Shown one piece after another: positions 2,187 through 9,498 of a DNA stretch of 51,536 nt. Positions within the stretch are counted from its first letter, which is position 1. Each line of letters opens with the position of its first letter. Source of the stretch: Candidatus Buchananbacteria bacterium RIFCSPHIGHO2_01_FULL_44_11 (GTDB taxonomy: Bacteria; Patescibacteriota; Patescibacteriia; Buchananbacterales; UBA6539); the NCBI GenBank assembly GCA_001817345.1, contig MHIE01000003.1, positions 29,423 to 80,958 on the forward strand, read 5' to 3'. The position numbers and the translations under genes are program-made. The notes beneath the pieces are model-generated. The model was given only the letters and a program-made list of their open reading frames with translations. It was not told the DNA's origin and searched no databases.

Positions 2187-2215
2187 GATTAATCGGCCCG
2201 AATCCCGCCTTGCCC

Positions 2216-2592
2216 TCGAGGATCGTCTAATGACAGGACCCCGCGCTAAAGTCCTAATGATATTGTCTAAATTCAGTGCTCGAAAACGCCTTCGGTTTAC
2301 TTATCAAAATAATTTAATTCTTTCCAAAGACTTAGCGCGGGGCAGGCAGCGGTCGGAGCTTGTCCCGCACCAAAACTCGGGGATCGTCTAATGGTAGGAC
2401 AGCGGCCTTTGGAGCCGTCAATCCTGGTTCGAATCCAGGTCCCCGAGTTTTGGTGCGGGGGGGCAGTCAATCCTGGTTCTCCGCCAACCTAAATTTTTTT
2501 GAGGGCGTGCGCCAGAGGCCAGTCAAAGGCGCTGGCAGGCACATCAGCCTCTGGCTGAGATCCGCCTTTGGTGGAGAATCCATGTCCCCGAG
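2216..2592 (+). pseudogene. Fragmented relic copy of tRNA-Gln, interrupted by three hairpin insertions
   Basis: Collinear pieces matching the intact tRNA at 2216-2239 (21/24), 2348-2359 (TTT deleted), 2466-2479 (14/14), 2576-2592 (16/17). Confidence 0.7.
2377..2447 (+). tRNA. tRNA-Gln(TTG)
   Basis: TCGGGGA/TCCCCGA acceptor; anticodon arm GCGGC-CTTTGGA-GCCGT; T arm CCTGG-TTCGAAT-CCAGG. Confidence 0.93.
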
Positions 2593-2644: not shown

Positions 2645-3391
2645 ATGGAAATTTTAAATCTCGTCTGGGATCAGTATCTATACATCCCGCTTTTTAATCT
2701 TCTAATTTGGCTCTACCTAAATTTTTCCTTTTTCAACTTGGGTATAGCCGTGATCATTTTAACGATTATTTTAAGAATCGTTCTTCTGCCCTTGTCTTAC
2801 ATGACTGAGAGGGCAAAAATTGTCCGCCAGCAGCTTGACGATAAAGTCGATGAGATAGCCATTGACTTTGCCAATGACCCGGTGAAAAAAAAGCTGGCGA
2901 TCCGGCGGTACTTAAAAACCAAAAGAATCCATCCCTGGGCTAAAACGCTATCCTTGGTCATCCAGGGCCTGGTCTTAGTCTTACTTTATCAGGTCTTTGT
3001 CGGCGGCATTAACAGCCAGGCCAAGCTGCACCTGCTTTATGCCAGTATGGCCCGGCCGGATTTCATCAACACCAATTTTTTGTGGTTTGATATCAGTAAG
3101 ACCAACCTACTTGCCGCCAGCATCGTTGCCGCCTACATCTTTGGCGAAATTTTAATTGAACAATTTGAGAAAAAAAATAAAGAAAAGCAAAATGCCACCC
3201 GGCGGGAGCTGTTTTACATCCTTTTTTTTCCAGCTGGTGTCTTCCTGACTCTGGCCTTGTTGCCGGCCGTTAAATCCATTTTCATTTTGACATCTTTGAT
3301 GTTTTCAACTATAATATCATTAATAACCTTTTCTATCGTTCGGGCAAAAAAGATAGCTAAACCTCAGGGCGATAAAAAGATGAATCATTAA
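2645..3391 (+). CDS. yidC: YidC/Oxa1 family membrane protein insertase (short form)
   Basis: LYIPLFNLL..NLGIAVIILTIILRIVLLPL motif and FLWFDISK segment; multi-TM. Confidence 0.75.
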   Translation: MEILNLVWDQYLYIPLFNLLIWLYLNFSFFNLGIAVIILTIILRIVLLPLSYMTERAKIVRQQLDDKVDEIAIDFANDPVKKKLAIRRYLKTKRIHPWAKTLSLVIQGLVLVLLYQVFVGGINSQAKLHLLYASMARPDFINTNFLWFDISKTNLLAASIVAAYIFGEILIEQFEKKNKEKQNATRRELFYILFFPAGVFLTLALLPAVKSIFILTSLMFSTIISLITFSIVRAKKIAKPQGDKKMNH

Positions 3392-8142: not shown

Positions 8143-9498
8143 ATGGAGATTGTTATTGATTTCCCTAATTTAAACTCAAACCCACTGGTACTGATGTGGT
8201 GGTTTTTTAGAACTATCGGCTGGATTATTCCGGTCTTTTTCTTTGTTTTGGTATTAATTTTTGGCTGGCAGAGCTATATTCGCAACCACTACCGAACCAA
8301 AAGAAAATATATTTTGCTGGCTATTGATGTACCTAAAGACAATGAGCAAACCCCCAAGGCCGCCGAAAATATTTTTAACCATTTAGCTGGCGCCCATCAG
8401 CCGCTGGAATTCCATGACAAATGGTGGACCGGAGAAATACCCAACAGCTTTTCTTTGGAGATTGTCAGCTTAGGCGGGTATATCCAGTTTATAGTCCACT
8501 TAGTGGAAGAATACCGAGATATGGTTGAAGCGATGATTTACGCCCAATACCCGGACGCAGAAATTACCGAGGTGGAAGATTACACAAAAAAATGGAACAT
8601 CAAATTTCCCAACGAAGAATATAAATTCTGGGGTACGGAACTAAAGCTGAGGGCAAGCGAATTTTACCCAATTAGAACCTACACTGAGTTTGAAGACAAA
8701 GTTTCCAAAGAAGCTTACAAAGATTCAATGGCAGCGATGCTAGAATCAATGACTAGAATCGGTCCCGGCGAAGAAATTTGGGTCCAGTTAGTCATTACAC
8801 CGGCCGACAATGATTGGTATGAAGGCAGTGAATCTGTTATTGATAAAATTATTGGCGCCAAAGGCAAAGAGAAGCATAGTTTATTCAAATCAGCCGCTGA
8901 TTTTGTCGGTTATGTCGCTAATTCAGTGATTAGCACCACCGAAGCCAGCAGTAACCACGGCGGCGAAACGCCAAATCAGATGCTTTATCTGACACCTGGA
9001 AAGAAAGATGTGGTCGCGGCAATCGAAAAAAAAACCAGCAAGGTTGGCTACCACACAAAAATCAGGCTGGTTTATATTGCCGAAAAAGACAAATATAAAA
9101 AACGTATTCCTCACGGTGTTTATGGGGCATTTAAGCAGTTTAATACTTACGACCTAAACTCAATCAAGCCGGATTCTAAAACTTTAACCGGCGGGGTTGT
9201 CTTTTTTAAAAAAACCCGGCTGACCTGGCGGAGTAATAAAATGCTTTATCGCTATAAAAGCCGGGGTCACTGGTTGGAGCCGGGCTATTACGGTAAAGTG
9301 TTTAATACCGAAGAGCTAGCCACTCTTTATCATTTTCCAGTGTCGGCGTCAGTCAAAACGCCGTCAGTTCAAAGAACTGAAAGCAAAAAATCTCAGCCAC
9401 CAATCTCTCTACCGACCGAGGAGTTTCGGGTTGAGCCAGTAGATCAGTTTGAATTAAACACGGCCTCTGCCGCGCCACCCGAAGATCTTCCCACTTAA
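8143..9498 (+). CDS. Conserved single-pass membrane protein, partner of the downstream VirD4/HerA-like ATPase
   Basis: N-terminal TM; FSLEIVS, IYAQYPDAEITEVEDY, FNTEELATLYHFP motifs recalled from CPR proteins next to such ATPases. Confidence 0.7.
   Translation: MEIVIDFPNLNSNPLVLMWWFFRTIGWIIPVFFFVLVLIFGWQSYIRNHYRTKRKYILLAIDVPKDNEQTPKAAENIFNHLAGAHQPLEFHDKWWTGEIPNSFSLEIVSLGGYIQFIVHLVEEYRDMVEAMIYAQYPDAEITEVEDYTKKWNIKFPNEEYKFWGTELKLRASEFYPIRTYTEFEDKVSKEAYKDSMAAMLESMTRIGPGEEIWVQLVITPADNDWYEGSESVIDKIIGAKGKEKHSLFKSAADFVGYVANSVISTTEASSNHGGETPNQMLYLTPGKKDVVAAIEKKTSKVGYHTKIRLVYIAEKDKYKKRIPHGVYGAFKQFNTYDLNSIKPDSKTLTGGVVFFKKTRLTWRSNKMLYRYKSRGHWLEPGYYGKVFNTEELATLYHFPVSASVKTPSVQRTESKKSQPPISLPTEEFRVEPVDQFELNTASAAPPEDLPT

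Follow-up and report, generated by a model that had tools for sequence, protein, structure and literature searches.

A glutamine tRNA gene nested inside the dead remains of an older copy in a Candidatus Buchananbacteria genome

Introduction

SegB is a free-standing GIY-YIG homing endonuclease encoded in the tRNA gene clusters of phages T4 and T6. According to the accessible text of two reports, it promotes the inheritance or segmental amplification of a block with a full tRNA gene, and the association of segB with tRNA genes is widespread in phages (PMC2330249; PMC13096335). The Ssn family (cd10448) consists of small single-domain GIY-YIG proteins, described in the available part of the source paper as site-specific nucleases of single-stranded DNA that occur with hairpin repeats named NTS and SRM (PMC11893778). 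In rRNA genes of bacteria of the Candidate Phyla Radiation (CPR), inserts other than introns have been found mostly at the tips or bases of stem-loops, some of them with GIY-YIG open reading frames (ORFs), as far as the accessible portion of that study describes them (PMC11270868). Here we describe a tRNA-Gln gene that lies within the broken remains of an older tRNA-Gln, in a 51,536-nt stretch of DNA from Candidatus Buchananbacteria bacterium RIFCSPHIGHO2_01_FULL_44_11 (assembly GCA_001817345.1, contig MHIE01000003.1, positions 29,423 to 80,958), referred to below as the window. Genes for FtsX (1205-2122) and a YidC-type protein (2645-3391), both assigned with Pfam, enclose the interval in which the module lies, and coordinates are those of the window.

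Other systems share single features with this locus. Archaeal multi-intron and split tRNA genes are interrupted at multiple sites, among them the anticodon loop, the T loop and the D arm, and GC-rich helices join the halves. Mobile ORFs of GIY-YIG type in fungal mitochondria form hybrid genes, in which the element brings a copy of the gene end that it displaces and the old end is left as a fragment. Repetitive extragenic palindromic (REP) sequences and their hairpin-forming doublets (REPINs), with REP-associated tyrosine (RAYT, Y1) transposases, and miniature inverted-repeat transposable elements (MITEs) are short multicopy repeats that are palindromic or bounded by terminal inverted repeats. 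A literature search, from which most subscription journals were missing and which is thus no proof of absence, yielded no report of tRNA genes nested together with hairpin inserts or GIY-YIG cassettes in Patescibacteria/CPR.

Results

An intact tRNA-Gln gene was found inside a fragmented second copy of itself. ARAGORN gave one tRNA-Gln(ttg) at 2376-2448, and the Rfam tRNA model (RF00005) matched 2377-2447 with 63.4 bits (gathering threshold 29); the cloverleaf with its anticodon identifies the inner gene as a genuine tRNA. It is the only kind of RNA to reach an Rfam gathering score in the window. The initial annotation, made from the letters of the window, had described four collinear fragments of a second tRNA-Gln around the intact one, and three of these were recovered as direct repeats of 88-90% identity, the second piece being weaker. 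The flanks hold three separate diagonals of at least 14 nt with at most one mismatch to the tRNA; among 1000 dinucleotide-preserving shuffles, 998 had no such diagonal, two had one and none had two or more. The outer pieces are not explained by chance. After in-silico removal of the inserts, ARAGORN at its default threshold found no tRNA in the outer copy with any of three boundary choices, and at a lowered threshold one boundary choice yielded a spurious tRNA-Ala. Only the inner copy is a tRNA, and the outer copy is dead. The parts of the module are as follows; the assembly of the window's genome (943 kb, 78% complete) is called G000, and G-, C- and L-numbers denote genomes, contigs and loci.

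2158-2186, + strand: promoter-like site TTGACA-17-TAAATT, upstream of the entire module (consensus match 10/12)
2203-2215, + strand: outer 5' clamp, degenerate, TCCCGCCTTGCCC (pairs with 2592-2604)
2216-2239, + strand: outer piece F1, acceptor 5' strand and D arm, the first 24 nt of a tRNA-Gln (direct repeat 2215-2239, 88% to 2376-2400)
2239-2342, + strand: insert 1, a 104-nt hairpin-ended element with arms CCCCGCGCTAA/TTAGCGCGGGG and conserved core CGAAAACGCCTTCGGTTTAC; base 2239 is common to F1
2343-2347, + strand: CAGGC, interpreted as the 3' tail of insert 1 (C[GA]AG[AG]C in the family; flanks of nine copies, by eye)
2348-2359, + strand: outer piece F2, position 26 and anticodon stem 5' strand, GGAGC, with a loop that lacks 3 nt (by-eye reading and homologous pieces at L045, L064 and L015)
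2360-2363, + strand: TTGT linker ahead of the clamp (YTGT or TTAT in relatives; by eye)
2364-2376, + strand: clamp 5' strand, 13 bp, CCCGCACCAAAAC (inverted repeat; covariation in 19 syntenic loci)
2377-2447, + strand: intact tRNA-Gln(UUG), CCA not encoded (sole tRNA-Gln found by ARAGORN in the G000 assembly)
2447-2459, + strand: clamp 3' strand, GTTTTGGTGCGGG, in which the discriminator base G2447 pairs with C2376 (inverted repeat; covariation)
2460-2479, + strand: outer piece F3, GGGGC, anticodon stem 3' strand, variable loop, T stem 5' strand and TTC (direct repeat, 90%)
2480-2575, + strand: insert 3, a 96-nt palindromic element between T-loop C56 and G57
2576-2592, + strand: outer piece F4, T-loop GAAT, T stem 3' strand (4/5 pairs), acceptor 3' strand and discriminator (direct repeat 2576-2595, 90%; E 8e-4)
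2592-2604, + strand: outer 3' clamp, degenerate, GGTTAGTGAGGGA (pairs with 2203-2215)

F1 was matched to the inner tRNA by BLAST over query positions 1-18 (E 2e-4). A G-to-A change at its position 4 disrupts one pair with the outer 3' strand and leaves the outer acceptor stem with 6/7 pairs. F2 is the weakest piece; it aligns only with a 3-nt gap and is absent from the output of the automatic repeat search. F2 and F3 overlap by GGAGC, and F3 becomes identical (20/20) to 2411-2430 with two variants seen in sequencing-run contigs (2462 G>A and 2465 A>C). In the outer clamp remnant 10 of 13 positions pair (eight Watson-Crick, two G·T), which was equalled by 683 of 100000 random 13-mer pairs from the interval, and the remnant starts and finishes like the inner clamp (TCCCGC...GGGA). 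With its own clamp remnant and its own dead tRNA, the locus is therefore a unit within a unit.

The nested tRNA-Gln was confirmed as real in independent data. Logan contigs from four DNA runs of four studies (groundwater and soil), one of which is possibly the sample behind the window's own assembly, carried 2050-2405 with no differences, and contigs of the same runs carried a stretch from 2394, 2423 or 2457 to 2750 with the two differences given above. The initial annotation had proposed to look for the junctions in reads; all of them were carried by independent contigs except the middle of the inner tRNA. The break falls inside that gene, where many organisms share sequence; the stretch is not covered from end to end by any one contig, and the two pieces from run X1 share a 12-nt overlap.

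Next we compared the three inserts, whose ends had been reported as inverted repeats and were found as such at 2239-2249/2332-2342 (11 nt, 100%), 2364-2383/2440-2459 (20 nt, 100%) and 2477-2487/2568-2578 (11 nt, 91%, across TTC^GAA). The inserts are members of at least two repeat families rather than a single kind of "clamp element". The family of insert 1, about 105-116 nt long, has arms CCCCGCRC...GYGCGGGG and a conserved core CGCCTKCGGYTTAC, and nhmmer found nine full-length copies of it in G000; a homologue in G002 (L070) lies in the same spot, following the D arm of a dead tRNA-Glu. In insert 2 the working tRNA forms the loop of a hairpin, whose 13 clamp pairs are continued by the seven acceptor pairs. 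Insert 3 is 80% identical to an insert at the same T-loop position of a tRNA-Gln(CTG) on contig C8 of G000, and its family, a GCCRRRGGC...GCCYYYGGC palindrome, has 13 loci in G000. Members of this family lie between C56 and G57 in the outer tRNA-Gln, an outer tRNA-Ala, an outer tRNA-Tyr and the tRNA-Gln(CTG) on C8, and they occupy the same T-loop position in G006, in G002, on G015:C71 and at L064. The GGAGC overlap flanks insert 2, and none was seen at inserts 1 and 3. In an Rfam search of 2100-2700 no intron family was matched at E <= 5, and the inserts gave only chance-level microRNA and small RNA matches (E 0.14-4). Two intron types were considered and rejected: archaeal-type introns, with no match to the splicing endonuclease family PF01974 in the 78%-complete G000 and no bulge-helix-bulge motif by eye, and a group I intron in the tRNA, with no match to an intron covariance model.

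Seven copies of insert 1 are located outside tRNA shells, and six of these have a duplicated gene start of 6-13 codons on one side and the full gene on the other (C6:30386, C25:12882, C15:175, C20:9530, C21:8372 and C21:28033, all in G000). The genes next to them include response regulators and gatB-like and secA-like genes, judged by their first residues only. Over 62 codons the old and new gene starts had 15 synonymous and 11 non-synonymous differing codons, and the gatB-like pair had seven synonymous and no non-synonymous differences over 12 codons. This synonymous divergence suggests a foreign, imported allele rather than an in-place copy; one gene start of each pair is read as imported because the pattern is the one expected if both had diverged as working genes in different lineages.

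The clamp was aligned across 19 syntenic tRNA-Gln(UUG) loci, drawn from 18 family genomes that include G000. The initial annotation had stated that it encloses the intact tRNA and extends the acceptor stem by 13 perfect bp, which agrees with the perfect 20-nt inverted repeat. The 15 acceptor-extending positions were paired in 81.8% of cells, with changes on both sides in 13 of the 15 pairs; the whole clamp-tRNA structure was 92.4% paired, compared with 36-55% when the partner was slid. The clamp is kept, with compensatory changes, in 16 of the 19 loci, the other three having none. Among the non-Watson-Crick cells of the 16 clamped loci, G·T outnumbered A·C by 27 to 7 (binomial p 0.0008, which is overstated since the loci are kin). 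This excess suggests that pairing matters on the transcribed strand, and the clamp probably acts also in the pre-tRNA. Both observations fit the earlier proposal that the extended stem may affect maturation of the tRNA. Among these 19 loci encoded CCA and clamp were mutually exclusive: two loci with CCA are unclamped, 16 clamped loci lack CCA and one locus has neither. G000 encodes RNase P RNA, RNase III and an enzyme of the CCA-adding type.

At two loci (L010 and L045, in G005 and on G015:C71) the 5' clamp strand is separated from the tRNA by a 13-nt stretch, TCGC.CTCA.AAT, which resembles a decayed tRNA 5' end and may be an additional nesting level.

The phenomenon is genome-wide and class-wide in this Parcubacteria-type class, and not specific to the ftsX-yidC interval. 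Within G000, 13 of the 29 tRNA genes had fragments of themselves within 400 nt, and 10 had a piece of at least 14 nt; two adjacent tRNA-Met genes that match each other were set aside. Of 27 such matches, 25 lay on the side predicted by a nest, with 5' pieces upstream and 3' pieces downstream. By eye, the genes for tRNA-Ala, tRNA-Thr(GGU), tRNA-Glu, tRNA-Cys and tRNA-Tyr have the same arrangement: an intact gene, often long-clamped, inside a block within or beside the anticodon loop of an older copy. The blocks are bounded by (G)TCCCGA...TCGGGA(C), and those of tRNA-Glu and tRNA-Tyr additionally contain GIY-YIG ORFs of 84-90 aa.

Two further genes of G000, both outside the window, carry inserts. 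The tRNA-Gln(CTG) at G000:C8:8787-8953 (L002/L029) is interrupted only by a palindromic insert of 93 nt (8844-8936), located between T-loop C56 and G57, and was called by ARAGORN only after in-silico removal of the insert. A spare copy was not found in the 78%-complete assembly; the gene is either a fresh pseudogene, or its T-loop insert is removed or tolerated. A genome scan for tRNAs hidden by T-loop inserts gave five matches, all of which were intact tRNAs joined to downstream 3' fragments; the pattern was too strict and missed the gene on C8. At a helix tip, model position 136/137, the RNase P RNA gene (G000:C3:248-965, L069; 120.4 bits) is interrupted by about 345 nt. This insert has CCCCGCCC...GGGCGGGG at its borders, contains an 88-aa GIY-YIG ORF and has the same hairpin arms as in the tRNA cases. 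A second RNase P RNA gene was not found in G000.

Comparison with related genomes, which the initial annotation had called for, gave nested layouts rather than a simple tandem duplication. BLAST detected self-fragments at four of the 19 syntenic loci of the family (G000, G016, G001 and G006), and the syntenic locus on G015:C71 has the full layout with the same order of parts by eye; G016, G001 and G006 have partial or multi-level versions. The layout is also present at tRNA-Gln(CUG) or in other families (L047, L048, L051 and L053), and L064, a non-syntenic locus of another family, is colinear with window positions 2337-2479 (78% over 143 nt). A pattern of a 5' tRNA-Gln piece followed by a CCCCG hairpin was found in 14 of 401 sampled genomes of the class, compared with 2 of 401 in a backwards control. 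At each of the 11 pattern loci inspected, an intact tRNA-Gln lay no further than about 350 nt away, twice upstream and nine times downstream of the fragment, and in four of the 11 a GIY-YIG ORF lay between fragment and gene. The clearest case is L063, where the D loop of an outer tRNA that is close to complete holds one 13-bp hairpin, which encloses both the ORF and an intact, separately clamped tRNA-Gln.

Two loci showed other arrangements, with ORFs recognised by eye. L046 (G031:C52) has 372-nt tandem repeats before the intact gene, each with a pseudo tRNA-Gln bearing an anticodon-loop hairpin and a small GIY-YIG-like ORF. L054 (G030:C32) has two intact tRNA-Gln(CTG) genes with the tail of a GIY-YIG-like ORF between them.

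In total 15 small GIY-YIG ORFs above the Pfam cut-off were detected in G000, with lengths of 84-90 aa in the four examined. Those in the tRNA-Glu and tRNA-Tyr blocks resemble solved UPF0213 proteins in the PDB, and for four small GIY-YIG proteins no NCBIfam family scored above its cut-off. When 14 of the GIY-YIG proteins were used in tblastn searches, only chance-level matches were found in the interval (E 0.075-9.8) and no match at E <= 1e-3 in the window. Genes of Y1-transposase type (PF01797) lie at G000:C18:8016, C28:211 and C7:6295, two of them above the cut-off, and are candidates for moving the palindromic repeats.

The genes around the module encode FtsE-like, FtsX, YidC, Band_7 and SecDF proteins, and an integrase was not found among them. 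The initial annotation had placed one promoter upstream of all the pieces. The promoter-like site at 2158-2186, a consensus match and no demonstration of function, was the only one on the + strand in 2050-2720, where no terminator-like site was found either. The region folds better than its shuffles (z = -4.56). The interior of insert 1 at 2263-2282 repeats the -10 region of the promoter-like site (2176-2195) with 80% identity over 20 nt, and this repeat may be a relic of a cassette-borne promoter.

Discussion

We consider it reasonably probable that the locus is an ORF-less relic of selfish cassettes that break a gene and bring a replacement copy. Small cassettes of this kind, common in the Parcubacteria-type class, would insert into the loops of genes for structured RNAs, or into protein genes shortly after their start, and would carry a replacement for what they break. 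The host would retain the incoming copy, the resident copy would decay in place, and repeated rounds would give a nesting like that of Russian dolls. In our locus the working tRNA is the loop of a 13-bp GC-rich hairpin (TCCCGC...GCGGG) set in the anticodon arm of an older, dead unit. The single-domain GIY-YIG nuclease of the fuller cassettes is the putative enzyme that opens the target, and here it would have acted in trans. The initial annotation had proposed that clamp elements insert into a gene and bracket a copy of local sequence; the recurrence of hairpin-ended elements agrees with this, whereas the three inserts differ in kind, and arrival together with a replacement copy fits better than local copying.

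Transcription from the promoter-like site would yield a long precursor in which half-tRNAs act as decoys. In it the real tRNA is probably kept apart by the conserved clamp as a folding domain of its own, and the clamp would have to be opened, or cut by the encoded RNase III, before RNase P cleavage, 3' trimming and CCA addition could take place. It may have been retained since it helps the tRNA to fold and mature in a precursor laden with decoys. The anatomy, the recurrence of the arrangement, the repeat families and the covariation of the clamp are observed, whereas mobility, a horizontal origin at our locus, the part played by the nuclease and the function of the clamp in RNA are inferred.

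A number of points weigh against this interpretation. A nuclease gene or its remnant was not found in the interval or in the window, and only 4 of the 15 small GIY-YIG ORFs of G000 lie within 400 nt of a tRNA or tRNA fragment, a modest enrichment over the 17 of 300 random loci. The SRM search pattern, as given in the Ssn paper (PMC11893778), had no match in the interval, and 11 matches in the genome compared with five in a backwards control. The insert junctions are inconsistent, with a 5-nt GGAGC overlap at insert 2 and none seen at tRNA-Ala or tRNA-Thr. No pair of filled and empty alleles was seen, so that mobility is deduced from distribution only, and the cassette model gives no account of how a cassette would acquire a copy of its target. 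The covariation and G·T bias of the clamp point to selection at the transcript level, which a pure DNA relic does not predict. The presence of the layout across families could also mean old age and constraint instead of repeated invasion.

More tentatively, and with clear doubt on our side, the cassettes might form a general break-and-replace system, in which hairpin-bounded units, opened and moved by hairpin- or loop-specific single-domain GIY-YIG nucleases, enter tRNA and RNase P RNA genes at their loops and essential protein genes at their first codons, each with a foreign replacement. The clamp would then be a selected insulating helix that allows the real tRNA to fold and to be excised from the precursor. 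The clamp itself may arise when a DNA strand that ends at the 3' end of the tRNA folds back on the acceptor stem and copies the leader. Such a fold-back origin would explain why clamp-bearing genes have no encoded CCA.

Among the alternatives, an origin in place has the most in its favour, and we regard it as unlikely. Slippage or template switching at long hairpins would have duplicated parts of the tRNA, and REP- or MITE-like palindromes would have settled later, with no moving cassette and no nuclease. The outer pieces are indeed close to the inner gene (22/25 and 18/20, with F3 20/20 in the run contigs), a nuclease gene is absent at the locus, the three Y1-transposase-type genes of the genome could move palindromic repeats, and 15 of the 19 syntenic relatives have no fragments, most of them having the clamp only. 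Independent slippage, on the other hand, would not be expected to place 25 of 27 pieces on the proper side with the halves abutting near the anticodon arm, nor does it fit the same junctions in non-syntenic loci of other families. The protein-gene starts differ at synonymous sites as alleles do that diverged while functional, and fuller versions of the module have GIY-YIG ORFs within the same hairpin arms.

It is very unlikely that the arrangement functions at the RNA level, either with the outer pieces as exons of a multi-intron or split tRNA or with the shell as a scaffold for processing or regulation. The outer copy rebuilds no tRNA, having mismatches in the acceptor and T stems and lacking three nt in the anticodon loop, and its junctions lie in continuous helices instead of bulge-helix-bulge motifs (judged by eye; no dedicated scan for such motifs was made). 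The Rfam intron families were unmatched, and the shell is absent or unrecognisable in most syntenic relatives. The splicing endonuclease PF01974 had no match at E <= 1 in G000, an assembly that is 78% complete, so that its absence is not proven. What speaks for a function in RNA is the single promoter-like site ahead of the module with no terminator-like site inside, the stable fold (z = -4.56), the covariation and G·T bias of the clamp and the occurrence of the layout in several families, as well as the tRNA-Gln(CTG) on C8, which lacks a spare copy and is interrupted only by its T-loop insert.

Crossover by tyrosine integrases frequently takes place in the anticodon or T loop of a tRNA gene, the 3' part of which is then replaced from the island. 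The break points at our locus are in loops, as they would be if islands or prophages targeting tRNA-Gln had been integrated and lost, leaving displaced attachment-site fragments; nevertheless, we hold such scars to be highly improbable. The gene in the middle is complete and bounded by its clamp, with displaced 5' as well as 3' pieces around it, the inserts have a length of only some 100 nt, no integrase is found among the neighbours, and perfect complementarity of leader and trailer would be unexpected if only the 3' part derived from an island. An assembly artefact of the metagenome-assembled genome has a negligible probability, since contigs of four runs from four studies reproduce 2050-2405 exactly and 2394-2750 with two differences and the same architecture appears in many other assemblies, even though no single contig spans the inner tRNA.

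If the reading as a relic of gene-replacing cassettes is right, essential tRNA genes of a large and poorly known bacterial radiation would be repeatedly overwritten by tiny selfish cassettes that gain tolerance through the spare they carry. The logic of homing elements and tRNA islands would then extend to units of about 100 nt, and littered tRNA loci would be explained. A conserved clamp raises the question of how a tRNA locked in a 20-bp helix is matured, and the small GIY-YIG proteins would be candidate structure- or strand-specific nucleases of practical use. For annotation some caution is warranted: tRNA finders miss interrupted copies such as the tRNA-Gln(CTG) on C8, and pseudo-pieces can be miscalled.

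Among known elements, REP sequences with their RAYT transposases resemble our repeats in that G000 has 13 palindrome loci and three Y1_Tnp matches, with no link shown between the two, and insert 1 is like a MITE in its 11-bp terminal inverted repeats and nine copies, with no partner transposase linked and none searched for. To our knowledge, REP sequences and MITEs show neither exact placement at T-loop position 56/57 nor, as in the insert 1 family, duplicated starts of adjacent genes. The mobile ORFs of fungal mitochondria act on organellar protein genes and displace one end, whereas here a whole tRNA is replaced inside hairpin arms, and elements without an ORF share the habit. In contrast to archaeal split tRNA genes, our locus has no bulge-helix-bulge motif, the would-be exons rebuild no tRNA and an intact copy lies inside; no EndA was found.

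As far as the accessible text of the sources goes, nested tRNA genes are undescribed in the nearest known systems, namely SegB, Ssn and the rRNA inserts of CPR bacteria. The Ssn proteins are similar to those of G000 in being GIY-YIG-only proteins of about 90 aa that accompany many short hairpin-forming repeats, although ours were placed by Pfam GIY-YIG and PDB UPF0213 matches, and inserts located in loops would be compatible with recognition of a hairpin on a single DNA strand. The SRM search pattern, in contrast, does not match the hairpins described here, and the Ssn paper makes no mention of tRNA (PMC11893778). The rRNA inserts of CPR bacteria come from the same bacterial radiation, and the RNase P RNA insert of G000 looks alike; there a single gene copy is retained, whereas here a spare lies beside the broken gene, and that study does not mention tRNA (PMC11270868). 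SegB shares with our system a GIY-YIG nuclease gene adjoining tRNA genes, but it is a larger phage protein that acts in co-infection, and the accessible reports on it describe no nested hairpin-bounded units or dead shells. In our case the genomes are cellular and the nucleases are single-domain proteins of about 85 aa; the window locus has no nuclease ORF, and fuller versions elsewhere have one.

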